From Proteromonas lacertae (taxonomy: Eukaryota): 64,000 bases of DNA. Position 1 is the first letter of the stretch; each line of letters begins with the position of its first letter. The stretch lies in the NCBI GenBank assembly GCA_002245135.1, contig NGBS01000001.1, positions 124,001 to 188,000 on the forward strand, read 5' to 3'. Shown here in pieces: positions 29,301 to 64,000 of this stretch. A model generated the notes under the pieces. The model had not been told where the DNA came from, ran no database searches, and worked only from the letters and a program-made list of their open reading frames with translations. A program made the translations under genes and the position numbers.

Positions 29301-32300
29301 GATAGTCTTAATTTACTATTTCTTTTACTACCTTTTCTTCTATTAGTTCTATTCTTTATGTTACTATTACGTTTTCTATGCCTTGGAGTATTTGCTTCTG
29401 AATTTATATCACTTTCATCAGTTTCTTCATCATCATCATCATTATCATCATCTCCTTTTTCTCCTTTACTTTTCCTTGGTTTTATTTCCTTCTTCAATCT
29501 TGATACGACTGTTTTATGAACTAATTTCTTTGATTTCTTTTTCTTTTTGTTATTCTTTTTACCAATATCAAATAGACTACCACAAATTGCTGTTATTGTT
29601 AAGACATATACTTCATCAAAACATTTAATCTGAATTTCATTATCATAATTACCTTTCTATTTGAATATATATTATAAAATATTAAATATTTATACTTTTA
29701 ATGGTAAATATGACATTTTTATATTCTTTGTTTCTTCTGATGATATTATCATTTCAGAATTATAGAAATCCATTACAGTCTGACCTTCATAATTAATCGG
29801 TTTAACTTCCATAGATAATGAAGCATTATTAAAGTTATAATTTTCAATGGAAATACTGAATGTATTTTCCATATTTGGTTCACTAATAATTGTTCCTTTT
29901 TCTGGTATTTTAATGTTTAATGAAGGACCTTTATAACATTTAATTGGTATTTTTAATAATTTTTCACCTTTGGTTGAATATATATTAACATTACCTTCAA
30001 CAATATGTGATTTATCACTTACATTCTATTCATATAATAATATTAAAATGATAATATATATACATATGGATTATATTTAACATCAATATTATGTATTTCA
30101 GTTCCACTCTTTACTTCAATAATTAATGGATCAATTGAGAAAATAGATGTTGGTGTAACTGTAATAATACAGCTTTGTATTGGAATTGTGGTTGATGATG
30201 ATATTTCTATTGATTTTGTTTGTTCAGTCATAGTATTGTCGAATGTGATACATTCATTGATATACTCTAATTTTAGATCATTGTCATCTTCTGTTAAATT
30301 GATAATTTCATCTTTTCTTTCAATATAATTACCCATCTATAATATATTAATATATATAGCAATTAATATACAGTATCATATAATTCTTCATAGTCATTTT
30401 CTATCAGTTCTTTTAATGGTTCACTATTCTGTATAACTTCACCATCTTTATTCCTTTTATCACTCTCATTCTCAACCTTTTGAATTGATTCAATTACTAA
30501 TGGTATTGTATCATTACTGGGAGTAACTTTAACAATATCATTTACAATCTAATAGACATATAAATATGATAATCATTATACTGCTGTTACTTCATATAAT
30601 AGATTCATCTTTGTATCATGTATCTTATTAGCTTGACTGAATCTTTCATTTATTTCTTTTGTTAGTGTATTTGTACCTGGTAAATATTCTACTTCACATT
30701 TCAAAAACTCAGCTGCTTTCTCCTTCAATTCATAAGATATTGATTCATCTTTAAATAATGATGTAATTAAGAATAAATTATCAAGAAATGATCTTTCTAA
30801 TTGTTTCTATATTCACAATAAAATATATAACAATATTGATACTTTCATTTCATCTCCTGGTTTAATACTTTGATATTGTAATCTGATTCTATGACAATCT
30901 TGAAGTAAATCATTCACTATTATTTCACTATGAATGAATTAATTATGTTATTATACTTTGTAAGATTATCATCATATAAATGAGTAGTAAAATATGCTTC
31001 ACTTTCTAATATAAATTGATAATTGTAATATGGTACTCCAGTATAGGAATAACCACTTGGAGTTGGTAAATTTGTATCTTTTGGAATAAAGAATGGAATT
31101 CCTTTACGATTAAAACCAGCAAATTGTAATGGAGTGGTAGTTTCTACAGAATTTTCTGAATTTGATTGGTTATTATTATTTACATTATACATTGATGGAA
31201 TTGGTTGAATATTTGGTAATTTACCATACCATGCAATACCATCATCATCTTACACAATATAATTAAAGAAATATAAATATAAATAAAAGAATATGATAAT
31301 AATAAAAAAAAGATATATAATAATCTGGTTTAAGATTAACATTAGTAGGAGGCATATACACAACAGTATCATCATTATATTTACCACAACCCATTGAATG
31401 TTTAATAGGAGGAATATACTTAGGTATAACAATATCATTCACTTTGTTAATTATTTCATTAATCAATATTGTTACTGTATAATACTTACCATCATTCTCT
31501 TTAATTTTGAGATATAAAACATCACCATTATGTAAATCATTGAATTTATCAATCTCTAAATGAGTATCTTCATCGCATTGATAGATTGATAAGATAATTC
31601 CATTAATTTCGTATATTTCATTAGTTTTAATAGATATATATATTGGATTATTAATCATAAAATCATGAATGGTGTTTATATGATTTACATTTGGTCTGTA
31701 TGGAGATAATAATGGTTGAGTAGATGTTGTATAATCATCATTTATCTCATCTCCCATTACTATTGGTTCATTCCATATTCCAGTTGGTTTGATTGGATAA
31801 TTATAATACTCAAACGGTTTGGTGGAATAACCATTTGGAATATTCTGGAATATTCCATTATTGGGTAAATTATAATCATTTTGATTCATTGTTTTTTGTG
31901 TTTGAACATTATTATAGGTTTGATTTTGAATATTTTCACATTCAGGAAGTGGAATATAACCAATATTCATCATTGATGATAAACATTTCAATTTCTTATT
32001 CTTATTCCTCACTATCATTGCTGATGAATAATCCTTAAATAGAACAGGAGGAATAGTAGTACAAGATTCTGGAACTCCACCAATTGGAGGATTTGGTAAT
32101 GAAATGAATATATTTTCATCTATTAACACAATAATAACAATTATAATAAATACAATATCCACTAATTGATAGTATAATTTCGTTTGTATAATCCATATCA
32201 ATTGTAGTTGATTTATAATTGATATTTCCATTAGAATTCTCATTATCAAGTGGAGTTAATACGGCATTAGGAGTATCAATATATCTCAACTGCTTATATA

Positions 32301-33524
32301 ATTTATACTTATCTAAAGCTTCTACTTTTAATTGATATGATTTCAATTCTAATTTCTATATAGCATAATAATAATAATAATATAATATACTTCTATTTCA
32401 TCTTGATATTTCTGTATCAATTGACAATGTTCTGATATTAATTTCAATCCATTTAACAGTGATTCAGTCATATTGAGTGTCTGTATTATGTAATATTTAT
32501 TCTGAGATACTTCAATATGATGAGATATAAATAATAATGCCTAAATATAATAATAATATTAATCATATACTTCTGATGACAGTTCTTTGTTATCTGATTT
32601 AACATATTCTTTGATTGTACTCATAAATATATCACTTATATTTGTTTCATCAATAAACAATTGATTTATTAACTAGAATATTAATAAATTCAAAACTAAG
32701 AAATATATACTTTTAATATCATCACTTTAATCCTTTCAGTTTCTATCTCATTTGATTCTAATATTTCAGTGAATATATAATATATTAAGTCATTATTATT
32801 CTCTATCTTTGGTACTATTGAATTATGAAATTGACATAAACAATATAACAGAAATCCTCTTTCCATTATAAAAGATGTAATCTATTATTAATATATTTAT
32901 ATATTTATACGTTATTTTCTCTGTTAAACAACCATATTACTTCTTTTAATATGATATCATACACATTTAGTATAAATGACTCTTCTAATGGTATTGGTTC
33001 TAGTGTATTATCTTTCATTTTCTTAGTTGTTTCTATCGCTATTAATGAACCTAATGAATAACATGCTAAACACCTTGATTTTAAATAATTCTAATTAATT
33101 AAAATATGTAAAGGTTTATACATCATTTCTGATTATATTAACCAATGTATTTATTAATGAGATAATTATAGTTGGATCATCAACTGAATAAGGGAATAAA
33201 GAGATATATTTTGAAACTTCATGTAATAAGAAATATCTCAGAGTGGGTTCTTCTGAATTTAGGTGCTTTGAAAGAAATTTCCAACATATTGAATAGAAAC
33301 TTCTCTTTGCAATTGTGAAAGGGAATGAAATGTAGTTAGATAGCTATTCAAATATAAATCCAAAAATATTTACTTACCTGTTTGGAAAAGTAAAATATCT
33401 CTGATAATGTCAAAGTCGGATCATCTAGAAGAGGACTTTGTAAGAACAACTCCACTTCTCGAACAATAGACTCATTATCGCCTGTTCTAACTAATCAATA
33501 TATTTTTATCCAATATATACTCAT
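17323..33524 (-). CDS. Giant (~5000 aa) protein: N-terminal ARM/HEAT-like region, PxG(Y/F)xxxGxP(Y/F)(Y/F) repeats and many ASH/PapD-like Ig domains (HYDIN/CFAP47-like architecture); >25 introns, one apparent frameshift near 23535
   Basis: Recurrent (I/V)DFG...(I/L)xNxG/S...F..P..G.I.P...I.V.F.P units across ORFs 18096-30336. Exons can be chained from ATG 33524 (MIRTGDNESIVREVELFLQSP) to TAA 17323 using GT-AG introns plus two AT-initiated introns. Confidence 0.72.
18466..18517 (-). other. U12-type AT-AC intron (52 nt) in the ASH-repeat gene
   Basis: ATATCATTTT..TTCTTTAAT-tcagtttttctAC; phase 2; splicing gives DTMK-I-SLDGKAVKPK in frame with ORF 18389. Confidence 0.78.
31250..31316 (-). other. 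U12-type AT-AA intron (67 nt) in the ASH-repeat gene
   Basis: ATATCTTTTT..TTCTTTAAT-tatattgtgtAA|G; phase 0; gives KPDYY|DDDGIAWYG in frame with ORF 31192. Confidence 0.72.
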
Positions 33525-33690
33525 AGATGACTCTTAAAAAACAAAAATAATGATTCTTTAAAAACAGTTTGAGTCAAGCTAAAGCTTGTTTATTATTTTC
33601 TTTATATCTCACCAATTATTACTTCAATACCAATAAAAACATATAGAAAATCTTATATAAGAATTAGGTTATAATTAGATGTGAAATATT

Positions 33691-36600
33691 TTACATTAAA
33701 ACCATAATTACCATAATCACCATTAAAATACTCATACAAACAGTTGTACTTTCATTCTTTTTACTTTTACTGACAGAATTATTGTTAGTTTTACTATTTA
33801 CTGCTGAATTTGATACTGATGGATTATCAACAACTTCATTCCTAGATCCACTTGGATTTGGATTAATAATCTCTATATCTTCAATGGCAAATACCTGTGA
33901 TTTATATTCATCAGTATATTCATTATTTTTAATTGATTCTATAATTTGACTTTTTTTATTAGATATTGTCAATTGAACTGATGTAGGTTTTAACGTATAA
34001 ATATAAGCATATATGTAATTAGATCCATCAAGTATACGAGATTTAGTTCCTATAGGTCTTATTGAATCGAGCAAAATGATTGTATCTGTTGTTGTAATAA
34101 CACTTTGAATTCCTTTTACTAAACCTAAATAACTCTTTGAATTAGATAAATCAACAGGTTCAATAAATGTGAAGGGTAAAACAATAAGAGTTTTATCAAC
34201 TGAAGTGCCTATTACTTTTGATTTTGATACACAATAACTAGTAGAAACATGATTCCATTCACCATATGGTATTGGTTCAGGTGTTGGTGTTATTTCATCA
34301 CATCTTCTTTGAATATGATATTTCTGGTTCTTTCCACTACATTTTATATATCCATAATTATTAATAGCTGTCTGAGGCCAAAGACCATCTTGTGGACATG
34401 ATGTTACTGTTGATTCAATTATAATCTTTACACTTGATTCTCCATTTTCATTCTTCACAGTTATTGCACATTCTTGATATTTCTTTTCTTTTGGAATTCC
34501 ATATATTAAACCACTCTTTGAATCATACTTCAAACCATTAGGTAGTTCTTCTGGTGATATAGTTATTGATGTTGGATTTCCAGTCATCTTGTAAGGTTTA
34601 ATTGATACATTTACATAATCAATAATCACTTGATAATAACTATCCAGATATATTAATGATGGTTTTGGTTGTTTGCATTCTCCATATTCATCTCCTAGTT
34701 TTGGATTCTCTTTTTCTATTGGGCAATCTCTAATTAAAACACCTTCTAAATCACCTGAACATGGCTTCGTTGATTGAAATCCTATTGGAACAGATTCATA
34801 ACCATTATCAGCTGGACAATAAACCATTTTAATAGAAATTGTTAAACTAAATGTCAGAGATGTATAATCACCATTTACTGCCGCAATTTTTATTGTCTTT
34901 GCATCTGATGGTACATATGCACTGACGGCTAATTCACCAGTTGAAGGATCTAATTCAATACCAAGTGGCAATATACCTTCTATTATCTTCACTTCTTTGA
35001 CTGGTCCTAACAATTGAGGTGTATAAAAATCATCATAATAAACAATAAATTCTACTGATGAAGCTGGATACACAATACCTGGTATTTCAGAATCGCAATT
35101 CATTTCTATATTTCCCCATTCTGCTATTTTATCATCTTTTGAAGAAGCAATACATTTACCTTTAGTTGTTCCTGAATATCCATATGGACATTCAAACACC
35201 ACTTCAGTTGATTCATTAGCTATTGGCCAATCAAAACCATAATATAATGCTTTACCACATTGAACTTGAGTTATTGACAATTTCAATGTAGCTACTTTAA
35301 TTACATCATCTTCAGCTTGTATTATTACTGTTATATATTTTCCAAAATACTCTTCTGACTTAACAACACCAACAATTGCTCCTTTTTCAACCCTAAGTCC
35401 TTCTGGTAATTCTCCTTTTATAACAGTAAATACTGTAAAATCTTCTCTACCTACAAATGTTGGTTTGATGTTTGTTTCTCTTCCAATATAAACTAACACT
35501 GCTGTATCATTATACTCAAATTTACTTGGTGATAACTCATGACAGTAATTCACTGGAGATGACCAAGATGGTGTATTAGAATCAGAACATTTATATTCAA
35601 TATAACCATATAATCCATCACTACATGTTAAATGATAAGTTGTATTCTTTGGACTTTCAGGAACTCCTACTCCTAAAGCAGGACATGTTTGTTCATTAAC
35701 AGTAATAGTGATTTCTGTAGATATTCTTTCTGTAGCAATATTTCCATAAACAGTAAATTTGTATTGTCCTTTACTTCCTTTTAGTGGCATACCATAAACA
35801 CTTCCATTTACTGCAGATATATACACTCCTGGAATAGTGATTTGTGGTGTTGTTGAAAAATAATCAACTGATCCACCTTCAAGAGTTAAATCATATACAC
35901 TATATGCATCAGTATAAAAGACTAAACTATCCTTATATTCCATCTTCTTTGGTCTTTCTTTCAAAACTGTAAATGAAAGAATAGTCTTTGATTCATCTCT
36001 TTCATTGCTGAATGTGAGAATGGTTTGAAAATGTCCAGGTATTGTTGGAATACCAGTAATATCATATGATTCTGGATTAATGGATAAACCGATTGGTAGA
36101 TTAACAACATCATATTTAGTAATTGCTGATGCATCTCTTATTGCTGTAATATTCACATATTCACTTTGATATAATGTAAATGAGGAAGATCCATAAGCAA
36201 CATTTGGTAATAAATAAGTACAAAATCCTTTATTAATCATACCCCATTGTGGATTTGTACCACTACCACATTCTCTTGATTCTATACCACTATAACCTAC
36301 ACCACATTCTTTATAGACAATTTTACCAGCAATTGTTTCTTCATATCCATTTTCAGGATCAGCTGGACACTTTGGCATTATTATAATGAATGAAATATTA
36401 GTAAACATACTTCTTTCATCTCTTGCTTCTATTTCTACTATTCTCACTTCTGGAACATCTTCAGCTGGAATACCGCTTATTTTACCTGTTCTCTCATTCA
36501 GTGATAAACCAGTTGGTAGTTTATTTTTTGATATATAAAATCTAGTACTTTCTTGACCTTCAAAAACAGGGAAAATTGGATTAATCAATTCAGCTCCTCT

Positions 36601-39600
36601 TAATTCATATACTTCTGTATTATAACTGAATTGATATGGATATCTTGGTCTACAATAGAACACTTCATTTTCAAACTGTGGATTTAATCTATCATAACTA
36701 CATGATATAGTTATATTACCCCATAAATTGTCTAAACAATCTCTGTATGTTTTATCACCAGCATCTGTATCATTATAGTTTTCATTGCCAGAACAATAAC
36801 TATGGGATATTCTTATCTTAAATTCATTGGATAATGTATAATTGCCAGTATATATTGCTTTTACTTGATATGAACCTTCGAATGATTTAACTTTTGGCAT
36901 TCCACTTATCTTTCCATTTGTCTTGTCAAATGACAAACCTTCAACATTCAATTCAGGTTCAATTGAATATTCATCAGCATATCCTCGATTTAATACTGGT
37001 AAATGCTCATCTGTGAATTTATAATAGAATTGACAAATCTCTTCATATTTAACATCTGTAGGCCTTGTATGAGAAACAATCAATCTAATAGGAAGTGTTA
37101 CTTCATTTGCAGAATTTCTTCCATATATGGTTATATCATATTCACCTACTACTGTAGGAGTACCAGTTAGAATACCTGTGTGACTGTCGAAAGTAAAACC
37201 AGAAACATCTGTACAAGTGATTGTACTAAACAGATTCTCTTTCACTGTTGGCGCTAATGTAAATTCTTCATTCATATAAAGATAATAATGATCTGAACTA
37301 TATTCCAAACTAATAGGTAGTAATACACATCCACTTCTATCAATTTCACCCCATTCAGGTGGATTTGTATCAAGACATTTACGTGTTTCATTACCTGAAT
37401 ATCCATATGCACATTCTTTAGACACAATTTCATTTCTCTTAGTTTCTTCATAGTTATTAATAGTATCAGCTAAACATGATGGAACTACAACAACTAATGT
37501 AAGTCCAACTCTTATTGTCCTTTCATATGTAGCAGTAATGAAGATATTATACATTCCTACTTCTGTTGTAACACCACTTATTACACCTGTTTTATCATTT
37601 ATAGTTAAACCAGTAGGTAAATGTCCTTCTGATAATTCTACTTTAGTTCCTGATTCATTACCTTGGTCTAATTCTGGTTGAATATGTGTTTCATCTCCTG
37701 AGAATACAATAAATGATGTAGAACTATATTTGAAAGTAGTTGGATAATAATGGCAATGACTAACTTCCTCTTCATATGTAGGATTCATTTCATTTGGACA
37801 ATAAACACTGTATTTTCCTGAATATGGTTCTTCACATTCTCTTTCATATGTATTTCCTGGAATACCTGGATTGCCATTGTTATATCTTGGATCAGCTGGA
37901 CAAGTTGGCTCAATCACCTTTACTACAACAGTTACATAAATTATACTACCTTCATAATTAGCAGCAACAATTATCTTCATATCATCTGAAGATGTAGTTA
38001 TTTTAGCAGTAATAACACCTGTATTTTCATCAAATGTGAACTTTCCATCATTATTATCATTTGTTATAAACTGATAAGAATCAAATACACCATCAGTTTT
38101 AGGATATTCTGATAATGTAAAACCTTTATAGAATGTTATTGTATCACTAATGCCATATGTTAAATAAGTTGGTGCTTTTCTCACATTAATTGTAATTGTT
38201 GATGGAATAATATAATCTCTGTTTCCATACTCAATATTCAATACAAATTTACCTGCAACTGAAGTCTTTCCAGATATAGCACCAGTCGTAATATCAAAAG
38301 ACAAGCCAGATGGTATTTCATTACAATTACTACAATGAATAAATTCAATAATATTTTCAGAGGATGATGGTTTTATTGAAGTTGCAACATTTACATCTAT
38401 AACGAAAACTCCATTATTCTCATAAGTCAGAACTGGTTTCAAATATTTACATTCAGATATATCTGCATCTAATAATTTGGTTGTTGTTTCATCAATAGCA
38501 ATACATTTTCTTTTCATTCCACTATCATTATTCTCAAATCCATCTCCACAAGGATATGAAAAGATTGTATTTACTGCAATAGAATTACCTTTATCATCAT
38601 TACAAACTAAATTCTTAATTTCAAATTTTACAGTAGATTTGAATATTTCATTTAATCTTGTAGCTTCAACTACTACTTCAAAAGAATAATCTGTATTTTC
38701 AGGTGTAGCACTAATAGTTCCAGTTTTTTCATCAAATGTCAGCCAGTCTGGATGTTCACCAACAATTGAATATGAAATAGCTCCAGAACCACTTAATAAT
38801 AGATAATCTGTTCTAATATCTGGAATTGGTTTTAACAGATTATCAACACCATAAACAATAGATGAATCATAATCTGGTAAATAACATGAATCAGTATTAT
38901 CCAACCACTCATGATCAGTACCACATGTTCTCTGATATGTTCCTCTATAACCATTTCTACATGGTAATGTTAATACAGTTCCTTCAATAAATGGACCATT
39001 ATATTCATCATTACAATAGTTATAACCTTTTCCTAATGGATTGCAAGTTTCTAATCCAATTTCTGATGTTATCATATAAGAATTTTTATTAGCACCACCT
39101 TCATGTTGTCCATTAATTATCTTCCATTGAAAAGAATTATAATGAGAAGTTATTGCTACTGATAATGGAAATTCAACTAATGTATATTTTTTTGAAATAT
39201 CTGATCTACTGAACGAATCACTTAATTCATATTCTCCGTTTTGATTCTTTAAATAGAATTCCCATTTGTTTGAATTCTTACCATCTTCATTACCAGTTAC
39301 ATAGTAATATTTATTAGCATAACATTCAAAATTATCAGGAAAATCACCTGTAAATGTTATTGGCTTATACTCTTTAGTTCCCCATATAATACCTTTGAAA
39401 TAATGAACAAATGAATTGTATGTTTCATCATTATTATCAACAAGTTTTTGGCAATCAGGACTTTCCCCTTGATTATTTCTAGATGAACATGTCAAAGGTG
39501 AATATGCTACACATCTTTTACATCCATAATCTTTCACTAATTCAATTGATAATTCAAATTTGGGTGTTAATATCTCAAATATCTCAGCTTTATGTATTTC

Positions 39601-41484
39601 AACAGAAATGTAATTCTCTCCGACATGTAATAATTGAATAGCTAAAACAAGATTAAACTCATAACCTACTGTATTATAATCAGTTCCAAATGTATCAGGT
39701 GTTACAATTTCAGGTAAGTTTTTCTTAAATGCAATCTCACCATTAATATACATTATAACTCCTGAAGTGTAGAATATTTTAGCAAAGATATGACTAAACT
39801 CTGCTACATTATCATATAGAATGAATATTCTTCTGTAATATGTAGTAACTTCAGTTTGTTCTGGATAATTATCATCAGTAAATTCTTCCCAATCACCAAT
39901 ACTAAATCCTGTATTCCAACTATTATCATACTGCTTTGTGTTTGAATATTGCCATTCTCCATACATTCCTAAATAAGGAGAGTATTGTTCTACTTCTGGA
40001 TTTGAACTTCCTATATATCTATAAGTTTTAGTATTAGCAAGATGTTCATATATAACAACAACTGAGGAAGTAGAACTCCAAGCATTACCATCGCTACTTG
40101 ATAAATGTAAAGTGATTTTAGGGGTATTCAAGCAAAAGATCAATTGCTTTGTTGTAAAATCTTCATCACCTTTATAAATATATAAAAGATTCCCATAAAT
40201 ATTATAAATTGACAGTTTCATTTTCCTACTTTCACTTTCACTATTCATATTTACAACTATTTTATTCTCCTTCTCATTACATTGTGTTGGTAGTGGGGCA
40301 ATTGGTGTTGGTGATGGAATAGCATCAGATACAGTAAATGAAAGATCAACAGTTGATGTACCATATGGATTTGTTACTACAACTTGAAATGCCACTGAAT
40401 TATCCAATACACCACTTATTTCACCAGTTTGTTTATTTAGTAAGAATGATGATGGTAAATTAACAGCTTCAAAATTTGTAACACCATAATGAACAAATGG
40501 AGTAGTGTATATATTATCTCCAGCATATGTTGTTATAGTTTGAGAAGAATAAAATGGTTTAGGAGGTTGATTATTGATTGTATAAAACATTCTTTTAATT
40601 GTAGTTTTCTCACCATTAAATACTAAATGTTGATTCATCATTTCATTCACAATTAATGTAAAATAACCTTCTGTTTTATCAGGTAAATCAAATGATAATG
40701 TAAGATGTGTTGTTGATGGAATATAACATTCAGCATATACATATTCTTGATTTAGATGACTTGATTTTGAGTATAATACTTGTCCATTACTCTTTTCTAT
40801 CATCACTTTTGTATTAGGTACATCTACTTTATATTTAAGATATATTGCATTAAATGGTTGTAAACAACCTATTATTCTAATTGACACTGTAACTGAAGTA
40901 GTCTCTGTTGAACTAACAACATTAATGTTAATTGATCCATCAAAACTAGCAGCTGGAGTTCCTGATATTACACCATTTTCTTCATTTAGATCTAAACCTA
41001 ATGGGAGTGGTGTATCTGGATTAACTGTGAACTTCAATCCTTCGGAATTTGATGGAGTTACTTCAGCTATTTCTATACCTATTTCTCCAAAAATACTAGG
41101 ATATGTAACTTCTACAACACTTCTAATCTCTTTTCCTCCTACTTTGTCACCTAATTTATCATTTTGACTCATAGGAGATCTTATTGATAAACTGAAAGAT
41201 ATTTCAGAGAAGAAATTATTATCTCCTTGTAATTTAAGAGTATATTCTTGTCTATATGGTGAAACATTTGATCTTCCACTGATTGTACCATTTTCGTACA
41301 ATATAATACCATTTGGCAATCGAGGAATTATAAAAGCACTTATAATATGAGTATTACAACTAGGATTCACTAGAATGTCAGAATCTTTTTCAAATGTTAA
41401 TTTAGTGTTGGGTAAACTACAAACTATACGTGACTCTAAACCATAGCAACCCACTAGTAGTAGAATAAACACTCTAAGTATCAT
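33691..41484 (-). CDS. 2597-aa intronless secreted/surface protein: putative Ig (He_PIG) repeats alternating with Cys-rich modules, a galactose-binding-like region, and a hydrophobic C-terminal tail
   Basis: Signal peptide MILRVFILLLVGCYG; repeats LPxGLxxxxxTGxISGxP; modules CPAD..Y....G......C..GY.G...R.C; Ser/Asn-rich spacer then CMSILMVIMVIMVLM*. Confidence 0.88.
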   Translation of the reverse strand: MILRVFILLLVGCYGLESRIVCSLPNTKLTFEKDSDILVNPSCNTHIISAFIIPRLPNGIILYENGTISGRSNVSPYRQEYTLKLQGDNNFFSEISFSLSIRSPMSQNDKLGDKVGGKEIRSVVEVTYPSIFGEIGIEIAEVTPSNSEGLKFTVNPDTPLPLGLDLNEENGVISGTPAASFDGSININVVSSTETTSVTVSIRIIGCLQPFNAIYLKYKVDVPNTKVMIEKSNGQVLYSKSSHLNQEYVYAECYIPSTTHLTLSFDLPDKTEGYFTLIVNEMMNQHLVFNGEKTTIKRMFYTINNQPPKPFYSSQTITTYAGDNIYTTPFVHYGVTNFEAVNLPSSFLLNKQTGEISGVLDNSVAFQVVVTNPYGTSTVDLSFTVSDAIPSPTPIAPLPTQCNEKENKIVVNMNSESESRKMKLSIYNIYGNLLYIYKGDEDFTTKQLIFCLNTPKITLHLSSSDGNAWSSTSSVVVIYEHLANTKTYRYIGSSNPEVEQYSPYLGMYGEWQYSNTKQYDNSWNTGFSIGDWEEFTDDNYPEQTEVTTYYRRIFILYDNVAEFSHIFAKIFYTSGVIMYINGEIAFKKNLPEIVTPDTFGTDYNTVGYEFNLVLAIQLLHVGENYISVEIHKAEIFEILTPKFELSIELVKDYGCKRCVAYSPLTCSSRNNQGESPDCQKLVDNNDETYNSFVHYFKGIIWGTKEYKPITFTGDFPDNFECYANKYYYVTGNEDGKNSNKWEFYLKNQNGEYELSDSFSRSDISKKYTLVEFPLSVAITSHYNSFQWKIINGQHEGGANKNSYMITSEIGLETCNPLGKGYNYCNDEYNGPFIEGTVLTLPCRNGYRGTYQRTCGTDHEWLDNTDSCYLPDYDSSIVYGVDNLLKPIPDIRTDYLLLSGSGAISYSIVGEHPDWLTFDEKTGTISATPENTDYSFEVVVEATRLNEIFKSTVKFEIKNLVCNDDKGNSIAVNTIFSYPCGDGFENNDSGMKRKCIAIDETTTKLLDADISECKYLKPVLTYENNGVFVIDVNVATSIKPSSSENIIEFIHCSNCNEIPSGLSFDITTGAISGKTSVAGKFVLNIEYGNRDYIIPSTITINVRKAPTYLTYGISDTITFYKGFTLSEYPKTDGVFDSYQFITNDNNDGKFTFDENTGVITAKITTSSDDMKIIVAANYEGSIIYVTVVVKVIEPTCPADPRYNNGNPGIPGNTYERECEEPYSGKYSVYCPNEMNPTYEEEVSHCHYYPTTFKYSSTSFIVFSGDETHIQPELDQGNESGTKVELSEGHLPTGLTINDKTGVISGVTTEVGMYNIFITATYERTIRVGLTLVVVVPSCLADTINNYEETKRNEIVSKECAYGYSGNETRKCLDTNPPEWGEIDRSGCVLLPISLEYSSDHYYLYMNEEFTLAPTVKENLFSTITCTDVSGFTFDSHTGILTGTPTVVGEYDITIYGRNSANEVTLPIRLIVSHTRPTDVKYEEICQFYYKFTDEHLPVLNRGYADEYSIEPELNVEGLSFDKTNGKISGMPKVKSFEGSYQVKAIYTGNYTLSNEFKIRISHSYCSGNENYNDTDAGDKTYRDCLDNLWGNITISCSYDRLNPQFENEVFYCRPRYPYQFSYNTEVYELRGAELINPIFPVFEGQESTRFYISKNKLPTGLSLNERTGKISGIPAEDVPEVRIVEIEARDERSMFTNISFIIIMPKCPADPENGYEETIAGKIVYKECGVGYSGIESRECGSGTNPQWGMINKGFCTYLLPNVAYGSSSFTLYQSEYVNITAIRDASAITKYDVVNLPIGLSINPESYDITGIPTIPGHFQTILTFSNERDESKTILSFTVLKERPKKMEYKDSLVFYTDAYSVYDLTLEGGSVDYFSTTPQITIPGVYISAVNGSVYGMPLKGSKGQYKFTVYGNIATERISTEITITVNEQTCPALGVGVPESPKNTTYHLTCSDGLYGYIEYKCSDSNTPSWSSPVNYCHELSPSKFEYNDTAVLVYIGRETNIKPTFVGREDFTVFTVIKGELPEGLRVEKGAIVGVVKSEEYFGKYITVIIQAEDDVIKVATLKLSITQVQCGKALYYGFDWPIANESTEVVFECPYGYSGTTKGKCIASSKDDKIAEWGNIEMNCDSEIPGIVYPASSVEFIVYYDDFYTPQLLGPVKEVKIIEGILPLGIELDPSTGELAVSAYVPSDAKTIKIAAVNGDYTSLTFSLTISIKMVYCPADNGYESVPIGFQSTKPCSGDLEGVLIRDCPIEKENPKLGDEYGECKQPKPSLIYLDSYYQVIIDYVNVSIKPYKMTGNPTSITISPEELPNGLKYDSKSGLIYGIPKEKKYQECAITVKNENGESSVKIIIESTVTSCPQDGLWPQTAINNYGYIKCSGKNQKYHIQRRCDEITPTPEPIPYGEWNHVSTSYCVSKSKVIGTSVDKTLIVLPFTFIEPVDLSNSKSYLGLVKGIQSVITTTDTIILLDSIRPIGTKSRILDGSNYIYAYIYTLKPTSVQLTISNKKSQIIESIKNNEYTDEYKSQVFAIEDIEIINPNPSGSRNEVVDNPSVSNSAVNSKTNNNSVSKSKKNESTTVCMSILMVIMVIMVLM

Positions 41485-41619
41485 AATTCAATGATGAAAC
41501 ACTTTGTGATGTGTTTCAACACTTTTGAAACGGATAGTTTTCATTTTTTATTTTTTTTAATGTTTTCTCAACTAATAGAAAGATAAATTAATAAAGTCAT
41601 GTAACTTAATATGTATAAA

Positions 41620-44603: not shown

Positions 44604-44715
44604 TATGCTTGTGTGAGAGAGCTATTTTTGTATTTTTTGTAGAATGAAAAATGATATCAACATCGCATTCTTAACAAAAACAGTCAGAGTAATAAAATTC
44701 ATATTATCATGCTAG

Positions 44716-46768: not shown

Positions 46769-46812
46769 TTTTCAATATTTGTAACCCCTATATTTTATTG
46801 TTAACTTGAATC

Positions 46813-47739: not shown

Positions 47740-47826
47740 TGTGATTTGTCATTAAATTATAATTTAAAACCTTTTTTTATTGATATGTGTAATTCTCTAC
47801 AATAATACATATAAATACATAATTAT

Positions 47827-50800
47827 TTACTCATCCTCTATTAAAATAAAATCTGGTTGAGTTATTTCACTATTTTCTACTTTATCTTCCTTATCCTTTT
47901 GATAATTATCTATTAGCTTTAGTTTTTCAGTCTTTTCATCAAAACTATAGAATAACCTTTGATCAGTATATAATTCAATAAACACTACTGATTTCTCATA
48001 TGTACATTTTATTACATCCTATATAAATATAAATATATAATGAGTATAAAATTAATACAGAAACACAACTGTAATGAAATACTTCCTTTAATTCAATACT
48101 CTCAAATTCACCATCCAATTTAAACACAAATAATTCTCTGCCAATTGTAATAATATAATATTTATCATTAATATTTGTTATTTGAGAATTAGAACATAAT
48201 TGATATTCTTTGTGAAATTGTAATATTATATTACTCTCTTTATTATCTAACAACAAATACCACAACGATATTATCGTTTTATTTGGTATTGTTGTTGAAA
48301 GTGGTGATTCTATTGGAGATACTACTTCAGAAACAGTAATAATATAATAATTATTATTGTATTTAAGCATTTTATGTGAATAGATGAAATGATTCTGTTG
48401 TAATTTATAACTTATCATTTCCTTAAAACTTGAAACATCATAAACAGATAAAATATTCTGTCTATTATCACTTACTAGATTCAATGATATATATTTATCA
48501 TCCTTAATATAAGAGAGTGATAGTATTCTATTTGATATTGGTATTGAAGAATAATAAACATTTGATTCGTTAGATAAACAACATAAATGAAATGTATTAT
48601 CACATGTTATTGTAATGAAAGAGATTTGATCTGAATGTGATATAATTGGATATATATGAGAATAATTTGATGAATTGTTTAATACAGTCTATATATTATT
48701 AATGTATATATATATATACCATTGCATATTGTGATTTGTTAAGTGATAATATATATGGTATTTTCATTGGAATGAATAATCTATTATTTGTAAGGAAAAA
48801 TGGTTGAGATGTGAATATATTGTTATTTGGTAAATATGATATTATATGAAATTGATTAGTGTTAGATATACTCCATTTTGATATTAATATTACACCATTA
48901 TCTATATATTACAATAATAAATAAACAAAAAGATAATAATACTATAAAAGACGAATAAATCATATTTATCATTTCCATTGTCAAAAGCAACCAAGTACTG
49001 TATTTGTGAATCTAAATCTGTTGATGTAATTGTGTTGATTTTGGAAGATCCAATTTCTTTAAGTGAATTATCACTCATCATTTTATACACATAGACAATG
49101 CACGAAGACCATTCACTGATGAATATAATTGAATGATTATTAGTGTTTATTGTAGAGACACTACCAATCTATTTTGATAAATATATTTATATATTTATAC
49201 TTCATAATCCATTGCAGACTTATATATTTCACTCAACTCTAGATTATTATACTTCAACAACAATATATTCTTATCTCCCCATATATAAATGATATCATTG
49301 TTATTATTGCTTTTATCTGTTGATATTAAAGTATGAAATAAAGCAAATGATATATTATATTGAAGTGATTTATCTTTATCAATAATATTCACTTTATCAT
49401 TTGTTATTTGATAGATAGTATTCTTTTTATGATCACTTTGAATATATTGAGTAAATGAATCACTTATTAATCCAGAAATCTCTTCATATTTCATATACTT
49501 TTCATTGAATAAATAACTCTGAGTACAATTTTCATTATACCAAGTCAAAATTACATAATTCCTATTATTATAACTTATTGTATATATTATCGGTTTATCT
49601 GATTCACTATAACTATCTAATACTACATCATTATATTCATATTGACATAATAACCTATTGCCAAATAATCCACAACTTAAATAACTACATTTGTTATTAT
49701 AATTACCATATCTTATTAAATATTCAGATTTGAAGCTATTGAATAAAATTGTTGATTTAAATTGTGATATAATTGGGCCAGGTTCAGAAAACTCATAATC
49801 ATGAGTATTGATATAATTGTAATCATTATCATTAATAAGATAATAATGAATAGTAAATGGAATTGTAAATAGTATAAGATAGGTTGAGTTTATTATATCA
49901 ATATACTGTATCTATTTATAATATATTTATTATTATTATGTATATTATACTTTATTATTGAGTGGTATTTTCATTGATATTTGGTTAATTGAAATCTCTT
50001 TCTTGGTTTTGTGATAGGTTATTTGTTGAATTAAATTATTAGTTGATAATACATATGTTATTGTCATTTGATTCTTTTCAATACAACTATTACACACTGT
50101 TTCAACATTTATATTCATGTTTTTATTATCTAATATACATACATTGCTGTTATTATAAATCAATATTTCATTTCTACATATTAGCCATAACAACTCACTA
50201 TAACATCTTATACAAATCAAATCATCAGGAAGTACTGATATATCATATGAACCATCTTCTAATATCATCTTACGAGAATTATAACAGCATAATTTCAACT
50301 GTCTAAGTAAATTATGATTATAAAAATCTTGTGGAATAAAGTCAAATGCAATGACTGGATTATGATGATAATTGTTAGTTAAATACATTGCATTTATTAT
50401 GTAAATAGTGAAATATTGATCTGTTATAGTTACTTACATATTATTAAGCTATACTAATTATTATTATTATTATTATATTAATAAAAAAGGATATATCATC
50501 AGGTTTCGGTAAAAATAAATTGACATGATTAAACATGTTTGATTTATACTCCCATTTATTAGACTTTTTGTAATATGTGAATTTCAATATTTCAATTAAT
50601 TTACCACTATGTAGTAGTAGGATTGAAAATATCAATGGATTCTTTAAAGAAGGAGGTAAGGTAATTATTCTAACATTTGAATCTAATAAATCACATTCTC
50701 TATTCTATAATTATTATAGTTCGTTATATCAATACTGACAAATCTGCTGATATCCATGTCTTCATTGTGTCCGAATGAAAATCATAGTGATAAATCTGCC

Positions 50801-51109
50801 ATGAATGTTCACACCAACAAAATAAAAAATCTGAATATAATGTATATAATATACCAATATCATTTTCTATGTTTATTGTTTTGATTGCGATTACGTTACA
50901 GTCTAACGTTATTCTTAATATGTCACTATTTATCATCTAATAGATGATAATATAACTTGAATACAGAGAAACAATCACCTTTTTTTATTTCTATCTGATT
51001 ATAGAGAAATGAAGCAACTAGATAATCAAAAATCTTTGAATATACTAGATAGATCACTCTTATTGAAAAAATGTCCAAATTGAAATGGTGGATTCTGTAG
51101 ATCATTCAT
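47827..51109 (-). CDS. Divergent DDB1/RSE1/CPSF1-family beta-propeller protein; ~8 introns
   Basis: Beta-rich exons chain from MNDLQNPPFQFG to ..ILIEDE*. PGPIISQF..YLSCGLFG resembles the family NLGPI..TCSG motif; the C-terminal part resembles a CPSF_A region. Confidence 0.5.
50434..50494 (-). other. U12-type AT-AA intron (61 nt)
   Basis: ATATCCTTTT..TAGCTTAAT-aatatgtAA|G; phase 0; gives PKPDD|VTITDQYF in frame with ORF 50388. Confidence 0.75.
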
Positions 51110-51206
51110 TAAGAAAGAAAAAACTGACAAACTAGTTTGAAATTTTGAATGAACGAAAATTTTGAATCACCACCACAAAAATAAAAAAAACATAAACAAG
51201 ACTAAA

Positions 51207-52472: not shown

Positions 52473-52574
52473 TTAATTCAAAAATTAAAATAAAACAGTC
52501 AAATCAGAATCAAACTTATTTAAACATTAATTGTTTATCTCTTAAACAAAACAATGAAAAAATATAAATTTCAT

Positions 52575-53829: not shown

Positions 53830-53950
53830 TAATGAAAAATTTAGAATTAAAAAATCGATCAAACAATTAGCTTGATAATCTATTTTGAATAATCTCTAAA
53901 AAAACATAACATATGTAATAATATCAAATATTATAATGCTAATAAATTAA

Positions 53951-55071
53951 TTACTTAGACCTATGATATAAATGAGCTAGTAAATCAGTCAACACTTCAC
54001 GATTTATAGGACTTTTAGCAATCATTGCTTCTATCGCTTTCTTCTTCTCCTCTTCATATTTTTCATACTGTTCATTGATTTTTAAATCTTGATACACTTT
54101 CTTGACAGCTTTTTCATCAGCTATATTATCTTTACCAATATGTTCATATATTGTTTTCTTTTGTAGTTCATTTCCAATTTCTAAAGCTTTAATCAACACC
54201 CAACTACACTTCTTATTCTTAATATCAGTACCTACTTTACCAGCAATCTTTGAATCAGTAAAACAATCAATATAATCATCTTGAATCTGGAAATATTCAC
54301 CAAATTGAAGTGATATATCTCTAATTGCTTTTAATATATCTTCATTTGAGTGTTTCATGTATATATAACCTGCTGCTATTGGTAAATAGAATGTATAAAT
54401 TGCTGTCTTCATGTGAGCAATCTTTAAATAAGTATCCATTGTATAATCACTAAATAGATAGAAAAATAAATAATAAATAAAAAAATATACTCATCAGGAA
54501 GTTTAGCAGAATCTACTAATTTACCTAAAGCCGTTTCCATTGCAGCTTTTCTAAATAATTCTACTAATTCCACATAATTAGGATGCTTTCGGAATTTCAC
54601 TTCTAAAATGTGATACATTTGATCTTGCAATATAAATCCATCATTTGTTGATTCTAATCCAACCTAAACAGATATTATACATAAAATATATGTTTCTATA
54701 CCTCTTCTCTCAAATGCCAACAAGATTTGTCTCTACGTGTTTTTGCTTGGTCTATAACATCGTCAACTACAATTACTGATGATTGCAACCATTCTACACA
54801 CCATCCTAGGGAGCAAGCTCTATTGATAGTAAAAACCGTTTTTATACTCACTAAACTGTTCGTCGCTCAATTTACCTCCAGACAATTTGTAAATAGTTTT
54901 TAAAGTAGTTAGACCTCTATACATTTTTCCACCAACAAGATTATAAGAAATCATTCCATCAATGTAATCCAAATGATAAGATGGAAGTTCAAATGATTTC
55001 ATATAATCGACTACAATGTTTTTCACCTTAGGATATTCAGAAACGAATCGAGGTAATAGAGTTGCATCCAT
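53951..55071 (-). CDS. FPP-synthase-family trans-prenyltransferase, paralogue B (altered chain-length region); 3 introns
   Basis: GGKMYRGL, LQSSVIVVDDVID, KTAIYTFYLP, FQIQDDYID, GKVGTDIKNKKCSW, LYHRSK*. Confidence 0.88.
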
Positions 55072-55172
55072 TTTTTCAATTTGGTTTACCAAGCCAAAAC
55101 GAGTTTTTTCGATTAATACATTTAACCCCACAAAAATAAAAATCATTGAATAATAATTTATTATTCATTAAT

Positions 55173-56245
55173 TTACTTTTGTCTTTTATATATCTTGTTA
55201 ATCAAACTCAAAAATATATTTTTATTCTCTTTTAACAAAGATCCTTCAACCATTTCTTCAAGTTCTCTATAACAATTTATAAATATTATAAATATACCTT
55301 TTCATAGATTCTTCCAATTCCATATACTTTTCTGGAATTTTTAATTTGGAATATAAATCTTTCACAATCTTTATATCATTCTCACTATCTATACCAACAT
55401 GATCAAATATTGCTTTCTTTTCTTCCTCATTTGCAGCTTCTAATGCTTTTATCATCACCCAACTGCATTTCTTATCTTGAATATCAGTGCCAACTTTACC
55501 CATCAATTTTGAATCACCAAAACAATCCAAATAATCATCTTGAATCTGAAAATACTCTCCTATTTTCAATGAAAATTGACGTATTAATGAGAGCAATTCA
55601 TCACTGTTCTTGTTCATATAAATAAACCCTGCAGCTAATGGTAAATAGAATGTGTAAATTGAAGTTTTCATTTGAACGATTTTTAAATAGGTCTCTGCAT
55701 TGTAATCTTTGTTTTCTTTTAGTGTTGAATCAATTAATTGACCAACTGATGTTTCAAGAACTGTTTCATGATATAACTCGATAAATTTAACATAATTTGG
55801 ATGAGTTTGAAATCTTTCTTTTAGAATCATGTATATTTGTTGCTCTAATAGCAAACCATCATTGATGGCTTCAAGATCAACATCTTTATTCAAATACCAA
55901 CAATCATGTCCTCTTCTTTTAATACTTCTATCCATTATATCATCATCAACCAGAAAGAATGCTTCACTCCATTCATTACACCAACCAAGTGTACAAGCAC
56001 TAAAACAATAAAAATGTTATAATTTACTCTTTGAACGCTTCATCCAATAGTTTACTACCACTCAATTCTTCTATTGTTTTTACTGTAGTGAGACCTCTTG
56101 TCATTTTACCTCCTAAGACATTATATTGAATCATTCTATCAATATAATCTTGATATTTCTCTGGTAAATGAAATTTACGAATATTGCTCATTACCAATGA
56201 TTTTATTTCATTAAAATTAGCTGTAAAACGAGAAACTAAATCCAT
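55173..56245 (-). CDS. FDPS: Farnesyl diphosphate synthase, paralogue A; 2 introns
   Basis: GGKMTRGL, AFFLVDDDIMD..RRG..CWY, GQLID, FQIQDDYLD, GKVGTDIQDKKCSW, KIYKRQK*. Confidence 0.9.
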
Positions 56246-56306
56246 TTTTAAAATAGGATTACAAACAATAATCAAACTTGTATATGTAAATATTATAGAT
56301 TAATCT

Positions 56307-59300
56307 TTATTTATTAGTTATTTTTGTTGGAATACCGTAACATACTACACTACCTGCATTGAGAGTTTTAAGTTTACATTTATTTCTTGATTCAAGTATT
56401 AATTGAAATATATTCTTTTCTTCATCAATGTTCTATAATGTAATATTATAATATATTCAAATATATAATCATACTTTCCAATGTTCAAACAGAGAAATAC
56501 AGAATTTATCAATATCAGCATCTGTAACATCCCAAAGACAGCCAACTACCCATTGAGAACCGCTTAGCAAATATGATAAAGCTGTTCCATATGCTTCAAA
56601 ACATCCTTTTACTTTTAACCTTCCACTTGAACAACCCATTAATAATGCAGGTGGACATCTCTAATAGTATATTGTTAATAATAGTGATAAATACCTTCAG
56701 CTCATATAATTTGTCTCTATTAAAGTATTGTTCACCATTACCATGTCCATTATATGCAAATACTGATGATTCTTCTAATAATTCACGATATTCTCTTTCT
56801 GTTGGCATTTCACCACTTTTACCTGTCCAATTGTATTCTTCTGCTAATTCTTCAAATATATCTTTTAGACGTTTCTCTGTAGCTTTTAAATCGCCAGCAG
56901 GGTAGAATAAATTAAAGAACATTATATGTAATTATTAATAAAAAAAGATATATTAACAATATAAGCTCCATCTTTTAACTCAATTGTTTTTGAATTAATG
57001 TGATTCTATAATGAATAAATAATAATATATTATACTTTATAAACCATTAAACCAAATTCTAATGAAGGTAATCTATAAACATATTCTGATTTCATTATTG
57101 GCAACATTTCAATAGGTAGCCAATGTAAATCATCAGAGAGTATAATATGAACTGTATTTACATCAACTTCATTATTATCTCTTTCAACTATTTTATCATT
57201 ATTATTATCTTCTGCTTCTAATGTATCTGACAGTAATTTGAGTAATTCATCTTTTCTCTTTAATCCTTCGTAAGTTACTTTTCTATCATCTAATTCTTTC
57301 TTTATTGCTGCTATTGTCATTCTATTATCAACTTTTCTTTTCTTATTATTTAGCCTTTCTTGCTGGTTTGGAAGATCTGATGTTCTTTTTATTCTTGATG
57401 TTATTTCGAATATCATTTCATCATTTGGTTCAGGATAAGTTATAGATTTTATTGCCTTTGTTAATTCATCAGATTTTAAGATATTTCTTGCATTTATTAC
57501 TCTGAAAAGTATTGGATAATTCATCATTAAATCTTTATTCTATATATTGCATAATAATAATAATATACATTACAATATTTCTTAATACTCTTATATATTA
57601 TCATATTATTACTATCATTCATATTTTGATGAATTAATAAACATTTTCTCCATCCAAATACATTATTCTCCATTTCAATAAAGTAGTTTATATATTCATT
57701 CTCAACAATATCTATTAATAAGATTGATATTATATAATTACTATACTTCTACCTTCCCACCAATGTTGTTTATCAGTCGATTGAATTGATTTTTGATTGT
57801 GTTCCATTATGATTTTATATTCTTTGGTATATTTATCTAAAACGCTTTTACCATCTTTATTTGGAGGTATTCTGTAAATGACTGGTTCAATATTAGAATA
57901 TGGAATAATGTTTGTTATAAATAAACTATTGTCTATTCCTGTTGATATTGTTATGATTGTTGAAACTACTTTTAATTCTTTTAATGTGTTTATAAGTGAT
58001 GGATATGCTTTTTCTTTCTCTTCAAGATAGTAATTTTGATTAACCTAAAGAATATATTACTATTTATTATATATACAGATTCTTGTTTCCCTATTCTTAT
58101 AGATTCTAAATAGGTATGTTGTTCCATGACTTAATTGAAGCGAATAAGTAGCAAACGATAAACTAAATAATAGTAATAATAATAGAAAATACTCTGTTGA
58201 TGAAATATATAGTAATTGCATTATCTTTTTATGGTAAAATGGAGATATGATTCTATAATCAGATGATAATAATTGTGTGATTTCTTCATTACATTTTCTA
58301 TTAAATCAATAATAACAAATATAAAAATACAATAATGATGATGATTTGTTAATAGTTGGAGTATTTGAACTCCACAGTTTATCAAGCGATTTATCATCTT
58401 CGCTTTTATATAAATACAACATACATCTTTGAATAACTAACTTCTGATTATCTTCTATTGTTCTCTTATACTTTTCTGCTTTCTTTAAATATTTCTCACT
58501 CTCTTCATAGTTTCTAGGATATACTGAAGTATAGAATGAAGCAACAAGTAGATATAACTCATTATTTAATGATTTATAACACTTCTTATTTGATATTTCT
58601 TTTATTATCTTTTCAGCTGTTCTTAAGTAATTATATCCTTCTTCTAAACCATCTTTCTTTGAAACTATACACAATTATAATAAAGTAATATATATACAGT
58701 AATAATTACATACAGTGAGTAATGATTTTGCATTAATATAAGTACTTCTCTCATCAAAACTATTTTTAATTTGTTTATCATTAAATTCATTCACTATTAT
58801 TTGAAAATTCATATATCTTTCTCTTTGAACTTTGCTCCAATATGTTGAATGTAATATTTGTTCTAATTCATTACTCTTTACATAATAATATTCACATTTT
58901 CCTGGAATACCTCTATAAAACCATATATTACCTAACATAATCAATCTACTTTGATTTAAGTATAAATAATTATAGTGATATTTACATATATATGGTTGAT
59001 TTAATGAATAACTATATTACAATATAATAACATTAAAGTATACATTTTACTATAAACACTGTCGATTATCTTTTCTGAATTGTTATAATTGGCATTTAAC
59101 ATCTCTACTTCTGCAAATAACAATCTATTCGTTATTAATAGTATTCTTTCATTCACATAATCTGTAGCAGTAAAGCAATTTGGATCACTTGCTTGAGTCT
59201 TTCTTAATTCTATTAAATTGGTTAATATTAAGTGTATTTTGTTCAGTTTCTTTGATAAATCATTATAATTGAATGATTCTCCTTCTAATCTATATTCTAT

Positions 59301-62115: not shown

Positions 62116-62277
62116 TATTCTGTTTTACTAATTCTTTGATTTGATAAATTAATCGAGATTACTAAGATAAATATAATCAAATTTCTACAAAAATGAGTAC
62201 TTCAATAGATAAATGAAAAATAAATTCAAATTTCAAACAGTTATAAGAAATTTGATCGTTTCAAATTCATTTCAAAA

Positions 62278-64000
62278 ATGGTTTTATCTGCAAAACCCCT
62301 TTGGAAAGCAATATATGATGATTTAGTTGCTATACTGTGTTACTTTATTGAATATATTATATAGATATCATCCTATTCTTTCTGATTGTCGAAAGAACAT
62401 TCTTTGTTCTCCTGTCCTAAAGTCAATATTAGGTCAGGTGCATTTAATCATTGAGTATTTATAATAATTCAGTATATTATAGTAAAATAATTACAGATGA
62501 GAATAATTTGAATAGTTTATTGAAAAAAGAAGGATTTCTAGATGAATTAATGTATAATCAAATGCATGAATGGTTAAATCAAATCAATAATTTAATAAAT
62601 TCACTAATTCAACCTACAGATTATGAAATTTTATTTGATTGTACTAAAAAGTTAATGAAGAGAATTGAAGCTGCATTTACTGATAATAGTTCAGAATCAT
62701 TGTGTTTGGTTATATATGCATGTTGTAAAACGTAAGAAATAGCATGTTTATCTTATATTCATAGTTTATTCTCTTTCTTTCAAACAATAACTGATGAAAA
62801 AATGTTATTAGCTTTATCAACTGTATACACTACAACAACACCCTTTCCAAATTGGTTAAATCGATTAGAAACTTCATTATTTCCAGATTGTGAAGATAAT
62901 ATAAATGAATTGAGAAAAATAATTCATGAAATCTATTTCTTTATCAATCAACAACCTTATAAGTTATATGAATCAATTCCATTGAATTATTTCTCATCAG
63001 ATTTTGATGAAACAATGACTATTATTGATACTGTCGTATAATTATTATATTTTTGGTATAGGAAACAATAATGCGTTATTATTTAGATGAAGAACCAGAA
63101 AAAGGACAAAAATGGATAGAATTAGTCCAGAATTATATTACTCAACTAGAAAATTTCGAAAAGAGTTATGTAAAACCACCCAAAGATACTTCGTTTTCTA
63201 TTGATACATTAATAGAATATTTCAATAAAAGAGAGAAAATGGAATATGATTTAGTAGATCCAGTCGTAAAGAGTAATTTATTAAAAGGAATAGGAATGTC
63301 AACATTTATTGATTTGTCTGATAGAATATCCTTTTTATTATTATTATTATTATATTCATTTAGTATATATTTAATTCTGCTTGTAAGTTAGATTCCATCC
63401 TAATTGCTTAGAAACATTTAAACTATTACATTCAATGAAAATTACACCTCATATAATCAGTGTAAATTGGGCTAAGAATTGTATTAAAGTTCCATTAGAA
63501 AGAAGAAATATCACAGACTTCATTGTTTCATCCTGTGATTTGTTATTTGATAAAGAAAATCTTTCAACAGGAGATATTACTAAAGATATGTTGAGTGGTA
63601 TTGATAAAGTAAGAGAAATGAATAAGTATTGAATATATTCAATAACATTATTATTGTATAGAGTATTGGATAAAAACAAACCTGGTTTGTCAGTGTACAT
63701 TGGTGATGGATCGACTGATGTTTTACCTGCATTAGAAACTGATATTGGAATAATCATCTACAAATCTGAAAATCCTAGTATAATCAGTTTTTGTAATGAT
63801 TTTCATATTGAATTAAAACCATTATACAACTGTAATAGAGACAATATAAAGAAGGATAGTAATAAACCAGTATTGTATTATGTACATTCGTGGTCTGAAA
63901 TTGGTTGGTTTTTATTTGGATCAAAGTACAGTCAATATATTCAAGGTTATGAATGGATATACAATATTCCAAGAATGTTAATCATTGCTGGAAGTGATAG
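62278..64000 (+). CDS. Thiamine-metabolism fusion: degenerate TenA-like + HAD phosphatase (TH2-like) + start of ThiD HMP(-P) kinase; 3'-truncated
   Basis: HAD motifs DFDETMTIIDT, HIISVNW, YIGDGSTDVLPALETDIGII, LYYVHSWSEI. The frame stays open to the window end as IPRMLIIAGSD(S), the ThiD N-terminal motif. Confidence 0.8.
63326..63386 (+). other. U12-type AT-AA intron (61 nt)
   Basis: ATATCCTTTT..ATATTTAAT-tctgcttgtAA|G; phase 0; gives LKGIGMSTFIDLSDR|VRFHPNCLETF in frame with ORF 63435. Confidence 0.75.

Follow-up and report, generated by a model that had tools for sequence, protein, structure and literature searches.

Predicted U12-type introns with AT-AA ends in an AT-rich contig probably from Blastocystis or a close relative

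Can minor (U12-type) introns of a protist end in AA as a habit rather than as an exception? The question is raised by a 64,000-nt stretch of DNA (the window; positions 124,001 to 188,000 of contig NGBS01000001.1, forward strand, deposited as Proteromonas lacertae in assembly GCA_002245135.1), in which three short inserts in open reading frames (ORFs) begin with AT and end with AA. Feature coordinates below are window positions, and the inserts at 31250, 50434, and 63326 are called introns 1, 2, and 3. The usual classes of minor intron, GT-AG and AT-AC, are named for the terminal bases, with AT-AA counted as a 1%–3% exception. The three inserts are likely A-type introns, predicted to be removed by U12-dependent splicing with cuts at AT and AA. 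The AA register is favored by a test against homologs of the HAD-family domain that hosts intron 3, by coding-versus-intron composition, and by the 3′ consensus (G/C, pyrimidine, A, N) in the tallied part of the intron table of human-gut Blastocystis ST1.

Three inserts with U12-type signals

Intron 1 (31250..31316, minus strand, 67 nt), intron 2 (50434..50494, minus strand, 61 nt), and intron 3 (63326..63386, plus strand, 61 nt, in the HAD domain) are all in phase 0 and share an ATATC(C/T)TTT start, a TGTAA|G end, and a GC content of 9%–13%. Branch-site-like motifs in the sequence are TTTAAT in intron 1 (31262..31267, minus strand), CTTAAT in intron 2 (50443..50448, minus strand), and TTTAAT in intron 3 (63370..63375, plus strand), which lie 12, 9, and 11 nt upstream of the 3′ end, respectively. 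The intron coordinates, lengths, starts, and ends, and the branch-like motif 9–12 nt from the end, had been given in the original prediction and were verified in the sequence. The same holds for its statements that the introns are in phase 0, that a cut at AA restores the reading frame, and that the next AG does not: Each insert produces stop codons when retained, the cut at AA rejoins the open frames (exon joins YY|DDD, DD|VTI, and SDR|VRF for introns 1, 2, and 3), and a cut at the AG one base past the AA end brings a frameshift in all three.

The U12 class is defined by its 5′ site and branch sequence, with other termini tolerated (PMC3584512). Introns 2 and 3 match the conserved 5′ sequence RTATCCTT with ATATCCTTT; intron 1, and also the intron of a separase gene described below, has ATATCTTTT, with one change, at +6. 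The motif (C/T)TTAAT is the degenerate core of the conserved branch sequence TCCTTAAC and is common in an intron of 89% AT. In the window's minor-intron candidates the distance from TTAA to the intron end is 10–14 nt, near the branch-to-3′ optimum of 11–13 nt for U12 introns (PMC3584512).

The 5′ motif by itself stands at chance level in the window (29 seen vs. 26.9 expected). The full intron pattern is present three times, whereas 300 local Markov simulations gave it 0.01 times on average and never twice or more; this test is post hoc, since the pattern was drawn up from the observed introns. Introns 2 and 3 each also carry TTAGTATA, a look-alike of a major-type donor, some 21–25 nt from the 3′ end (50454-50453; 63362-63363) and directly upstream of the branch motif.

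The AA ending compared with Blastocystis ST1

The window likely comes from Blastocystis or a close relative, judging from its spliced PFK sequence. Among 90 single-domain homologs, the best match is from Blastocystis sp. Blastoise, and the PFK tree places the window together with P0253 as sister to Blastocystis Blastoise and NandII (support 0.956). For ST1, one study gives 346 U12 introns that are "typically" AT-AC, together with all four minor small nuclear RNAs (snRNAs) (Gentekaki et al., PMC5608401), and another gives 253 minor introns, 77% of them AT-AC and 49% in phase 0, with a median length of 39 nt (Larue and Roy, PMC10639083). U11, U12, U4atac, U6atac, and minor-specific proteins are reported in ST1 and in ST7.

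We tallied by hand 210 of the 339 ATATC rows of S11 Data in PMC5608401, all 339 of which are on the ST1 sheet (places 1–120, 181–210, 241–270, and 310–339, duplicates included); what is said below of ST1 intron ends refers to these rows. The introns end in AC in 123 rows, AG in 72, AA in 10, AT in four, and CG in one. With AG at 72/210 and AA at 10/210, the premise of the original prediction that GT-AG and AT-AC are the normal ends of U12 introns fails in this lineage. Relaxed AT-AN ends are, on this tally of mixed last bases, a Blastocystis trait. An AT-AG ending has been called disfavored for U12 introns in a review (PMC3584512).

The base at −4 is G in 51, C in 42, A in 16, and T in 14 of the ST1 AC rows; G in 41, C in eight, A in 14, and T in nine of the AG rows; and G in six, C in one, A in two, and T in one of the AA rows. 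C at −4 thus tracks AC ends (42/123 vs. 9/82 AG or AA rows, P = 1e-4), a covariation that possibly comes in part from local composition, C-rich versus G-rich introns. In the text available to us we found no remark on either the AG ends of ST1 or this −4/−1 covariation. The window's own contrast of TGTAA with TCTAC (at −4, 3/3 vs. 0/2, P = 0.10) had been read as a 3′ signature specific to AT-AA introns. We reject a unique TGTAA signature, because the same covariation is present in ST1; TCTAC and TGTAA look like the CCAC and GCAG/GCAA of ST1 after C-to-T and G-to-A change.

Together with two AT-AC candidates described below, the window holds five minor-intron candidates. Non-AC ends are about as frequent among them (3/5) as in ST1 (87/210, ~41%; P = 0.65). 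What differs is which ending takes this share: AA makes up 3/3 of the non-AC ends in the window and 10/87 in ST1 (P = 0.002). The AA ending likely stands in here for the AT-AG ending common in ST1.

The introns could be real AT-AA introns and the ending still be a minority one, as in ST1, with three cases in a single window a selected fluctuation. We hold this to be possible but doubtful. The window was picked for its odd look out of a very large scan, the 95% interval on 3/5 runs from 15% to 95%, and AT-AA does exist in ST1 (10/210, interval 2%–9%), where one row ends in GTAA after a CTTAAT branch motif. However, three AA ends in five have P = 0.002 at the ST1 rate, and P = 0.009 and P = 0.0009 at the AT-AA shares among the AT-start minor introns of plants (10%) and animals (4.5%); moreover, every signal in the window is AT-shifted together. 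AT-AA dominance in the lineage is plausible from these sequences. As for the original prediction, its U12 type and AA end are made likely by the HAD profile, composition, and the ST1 3′ consensus, its major AT-AA subtype finds weak support in three of five introns with so wide an interval, and its unique signature does not stand.

The AG one base downstream

The original prediction took the AG one base past each AA end for a decoy, next to which splicing would be accurate. Given the free use of AT-AG in ST1, this AG is a credible competitor. Both sites might be used, with a sizeable share of transcripts frameshifted and destroyed, and AA would then be a leaky or regulatory 3′ site. This we judge unlikely. 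The 72 AT-AG rows indicate that A at +1 with G at −1 works in the lineage, and both sites fit the branch spacing. The next exon opens with G at 3/3 AA ends, compared with 8/58 exons that follow a major intron in phase 0 (P = 0.005 in a post hoc test); in the window, 28% of codons start with G. Against use of the AG, its register would be TAAG, with T at −4 and A at −3, and an AAG end is found in only 2/72 ST1 AT-AG rows; the frameshift would also be costly. The choice of AA over AG would follow from the bases that it gives, with −4 a G and −3 a pyrimidine, the pattern of most ST1 minor introns. Both a minority AT-AA ending and partial use of the AG are compatible with U12-dependent cutting at AT and AA.

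GT-AG alternatives and the fit to homologs

The major spliceosome might instead cut other, GT-AG introns, from an upstream GT to TAAG or TTAG or from an internal GTATA donor, and ATATC would be incidental. In-frame GT-AG alternatives do occur at all three sites, and the internal GTATA(G/T) of introns 2 and 3 resembles the donor consensus of the genome. For intron 3 the alternatives can be compared by their fit to homologs. We retrieved 51 HAD-family relatives and kept 30 (≥260 amino acids), excluding four long multi-stretch and 17 short sequences; the profile was built from 28 homologs, those with the DxDxT motif used for domain cutting. Removal of the 61 nt gives a gap-free match of 205.7 bits. 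The five GT-AG alternatives, all gapped, score 193.2 (+12 amino acids), 190.2 (−5), 186.3 (+4), 181.7 (−11), and 171.6 (−18) bits, that is, 12.5–34 bits lower; the −5 form is the 63316-63391 junction named in the original prediction. The residue after the AT-AA junction is V in 11/28 homologs and I in 4/28, and the 27-residue junction segment has the same length in 14/28 and is shorter in none.

Composition points the same way. On a coding-versus-intron Markov score, the bodies of introns 1, 2, and 3 score −33, −19, and −15 bits, respectively. In contrast, the 68–74 nt that GT-AG alternatives would drop at intron 1 are coding-like (+20 to +22 bits), as are the 110–113 nt dropped by upstream-GT alternatives at intron 2 (+27 to +31 bits); over all three introns, the upstream stretches dropped by the tested alternatives score +5 to +31 bits. 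The stretches added by the internal-GT alternatives look intron-like, at −6.9 (intron 2) and −13.6 bits; the lowest score among 934 held-out coding windows is −3.9. AAG acceptors are found in only 4/120 parsed major introns, and the three U12 5′ sites with their branch motifs would be left unexplained. We have rejected the GT-AG alternatives, which are very improbable, on the HAD profile, where 5/5 fit worse at intron 3, and on composition, where those tested at introns 1 and 2 drop coding-like or add intron-like sequence.

A one-base shift at both ends (TA-AG), or a local assembly error masking ordinary AT-AG introns, is scarcely credible: The shift keeps the frame and scores 205.1 bits at intron 3, within 0.6 bits of AT-AA, but it gives up the U12 5′ site, the defining conserved signal (PMC3584512), for a TATCC start found in only one row of the available ST1/ST4/ST7 table, and the error would have to occur in three matching copies in a window where long ORFs totaling 20.7 kb are free of frameshifts and GTAGG is at its expected count (34 vs. 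35.1 expected), both of which argue against it. A systematic G-to-A base-call artifact was likewise rejected, with neither GTAGG nor TGTAGG (16 vs. 14.5 expected) depleted.

Several observations weigh against cutting at AT and AA, or against its frequent use. The TA-AG shift and AT-AA are inseparable by the profile, and the branch spacing suits the downstream AG as well as the AA. The junction segment is longer in 14/28 HAD homologs, by 1–24 residues; with none shorter, the family rejects deletions and tolerates insertions at this spot, so length alone leaves the +12 internal-GT alternative standing. Homolog fit concerns intron 3, and introns 1 and 2 are backed by frame and composition. The AT-AA excess comes from a sample of five introns in a window flagged for AT-AA, and the difference in AT-AG (0/5 vs. 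72/210 in ST1, P = 0.17) is not significant. The 64-kb window has no Rfam match to a minor snRNA. Lastly, the placement comes from one gene, with a tree that contains no named Proteromonas sequence, and is therefore no finer than Blastocystis or a close relative.

A possible mechanism

Established minor-spliceosome biology suggests that ATATC(C/T)TT and (C/T)TTAAT would be read by U11/U12, and that U6atac would direct the 5′ cut to the first A. Several last bases would be tolerated in introns beginning with A, which amounts to an AT-AN class. Work by Dietrich in 2005 reportedly found that a 5′ A of the intron can join any 3′ base, whereas U in this position is highly deleterious. The second step would then select the AA register by its G at −4 and pyrimidine at −3, a preference taken from the ST1 tally. 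Strong AT mutational pressure would have shifted every signal toward A/T, the branch from TTAAC to TTAAT, the C at +6 to T or A, and the 3′ ends from CCAC to CTAC and from GCAG to GTAA. In this way AG ends may have drifted to AA, with the optimal AC kept. More speculatively, the G that opens the next exon at the three AA ends could help a weak terminal pair; in human genes, splicing can benefit from a G at the exon start (PMC8283771).

In its widest form, which we advance tentatively, the proposal is that the minor spliceosome of this lineage handles A-type introns only, at several times the ST1 density, and that AT-AA has replaced AT-AG and is at least as common as AT-AC, with a genus-wide −4/−1 rule that picks AA ahead of a usable AG.

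AT-AC candidates and the intron set of the window

The two AT-AC introns ending in TCTAC that the original prediction had set beside the AA ends are present on the minus strand. The first (56902..56951, 50 nt, phase 0) is a predicted U12 intron in a gene with Pfam matches to separase (Peptidase_C50). The second (18466..18517, 52 nt, phase 2, start ATATCATTT) lies in a large HYDIN/CFAP65/Cep192-like Ig-domain gene and is the weakest of the five candidates. Branch-like TTAAT motifs are found in 5/5.

A simple gene parser was trained on the window, with any A-N end allowed after ATATC(C/T)T and with a prior favorable to minor introns. In gene regions it returned 124 introns, 120 with GT/GC and four with AT starts, and chose AA at introns 1–3 and AC at the separase intron. 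At the 18517 site it preferred an 85-nt GT-AG intron, since the start ATATCATTT falls outside its rule. The acceptor is TAG in 112 and AAG in four of the 120 parsed major introns. Clean major introns (GTA..TAG, ≤50 nt; n = 99) have a median length of 34 nt (range 25–48), and G at −4 in 2/99. At 50–67 nt, the five ATATC candidates are longer than the window's major introns, just as ST1 minor introns (median 39 nt) are longer than ST1 major introns (~30 nt; PMC5608401, PMC10639083). They are also denser, at five of ~125 introns (4%) compared with 346/35,412 (1%) in ST1 (P = 0.008, post hoc). Other ATATC sites before AT-rich sequence (1003+, 17698−, 28525−, and others) fall within exons or within GT-AG introns of the ordinary kind and were left uncounted.

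The window is rich in introns, has 26.5% GC, and is biased to A/T at synonymous sites (GAA 386 vs. GAG 79; AAT 499 vs. AAC 40). Proteromonas has been given as 27% GC, and tortoise isolates, whose introns are longer and whose stops are encoded, as 21%–23% GC (PMC12129017). We see encoded stop codons at the gene ends inspected (55075, 53954, 52581, and the 11650 region); human Blastocystis subtypes, by contrast, have genes that lack them (PMC12129017).

Host genes and their neighbors

The gene with intron 3 runs from 62278 on the plus strand to beyond the window end and encodes a HAD-family phosphatase domain followed by a ThiD-like start, which we take to be a ThiD-type kinase in a plant TH2-like arrangement. 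A relative, P0122, extends into the ThiD-type domain. The exon upstream of intron 3 had no match at E ≤ 1 in a homolog search, and the HAD exon none in a PDB search. Intron 2 lies in a minus-strand gene at ~51109-47756, for which an Atlas score of 0.90 to the RSE1/DDB1/CPSF1 propeller cluster (rank 7) is a weak beta-propeller lead. Scans of Pfam, NCBIfam, and PDB assigned no family to the exons flanking introns 1 and 2. No ST1 orthologs of the host genes were found in the supplements searched (20/33 files unsearched, nine without text).

At ~17322-33475 on the minus strand, HYDIN/CFAP65/Cep192-like Ig domains are encoded by a very large gene of many exons; if it is a single gene, as the parse suggests, it contains both intron 1 and the 18517 AT-AC candidate. 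Also on the minus strand, an unbroken ORF of 2,598 amino acids with repeated He_PIG Ig domains (33694-41487) stands in intron-rich surroundings, and a tandem pair of farnesyl-diphosphate-synthase-like genes (53954-56245) shows 56% identity over the aligned part and differing intron patterns. A metagenome scan with the farnesyl-diphosphate-synthase alignment gave 80 loci, all at ≤46% identity, with no close relative, and was not used.

Relation to known minor introns

AT-AA is a known but rare U12 ending, and what is plausibly new here is its excess among five introns of a selected window, which is statistically notable. It is the commonest noncanonical U12 ending in animals and plants (PMC10639083, PMC1557818), where it makes up 1.117% and 2.958% of minor introns, respectively (PMC10639083). 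Sheth et al. list eight cases in four species (PMC1557818), and the MSH3 intron switches between AT-AA and AT-AC in human and mouse (PMC10639083, PMC1557818). We found no lineage with dominant AT-AA in the literature searched, which left out most subscription papers. The searched text is likewise silent on both AT-AG and AT-AA introns of Blastocystis, although published logos (Gentekaki Fig. 1, Larue Fig. 6C) may show these ends, and AT-AA is not mentioned in the available parts of PMC2831892, PMC7367187, and bioRxiv 10.1101/2020.10.19.345900.

If true, frequent AT-AA in one lineage, beside a relative rich in AT-AG (a third of its minor introns), would be a natural experiment on how loosely first and last intron bases are coupled in the second step of splicing, and it would test whether mutation bias alone can rewrite splice-site ends. 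At AA|G junctions, where an AG competes, 3′-site choice can be measured to a single base. Gene models limited to GT-AG and AT-AC would disrupt these genes and miss part of the minor introns of AT-rich protists.

AT-AC, AT-AA, AT-AG, and AT-AT introns form one A-type class, which depends on CENATAC and is spliced less efficiently (PMC8280824). In human this class is a minority of minor introns (PMC8280824), whereas all five window candidates, and apparently nearly all minor introns of ST1, belong to it. ST1 introns starting with GTATCCTT (25 rows) look major-type and were excluded from our tally; because they are 29–33 nt long and mostly lack a U12 branch motif, ST1 minor introns may be nearly all A-type. 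The AT-AA introns of animals and plants have the same termini as those of the window, but there they are 1%–3% of minor introns and here 3/5.

The closest system is that of ST1. The two share the ATATC 5′ site, introns that are short yet longer than major ones, a high share of phase 0, a branch motif TT(A/C/G)A not far from the end, a last base that varies, and a G or C at −4, of which C favors AC. They differ in that ST1 introns have a median length of 39 nt, compared with 50–67 nt in the window; that the branch-to-end distance in ST1 is mostly 5–9 nt, compared with 10–14 nt after TTAA; and that an ATATCT start occurs in 3/339 ST1 rows, whereas +6 is T or A in 3/5 window candidates. Above all, non-AC ends in ST1 are mostly AG (72/210, with AA at 10/210), and those of the window are AA in three of three.

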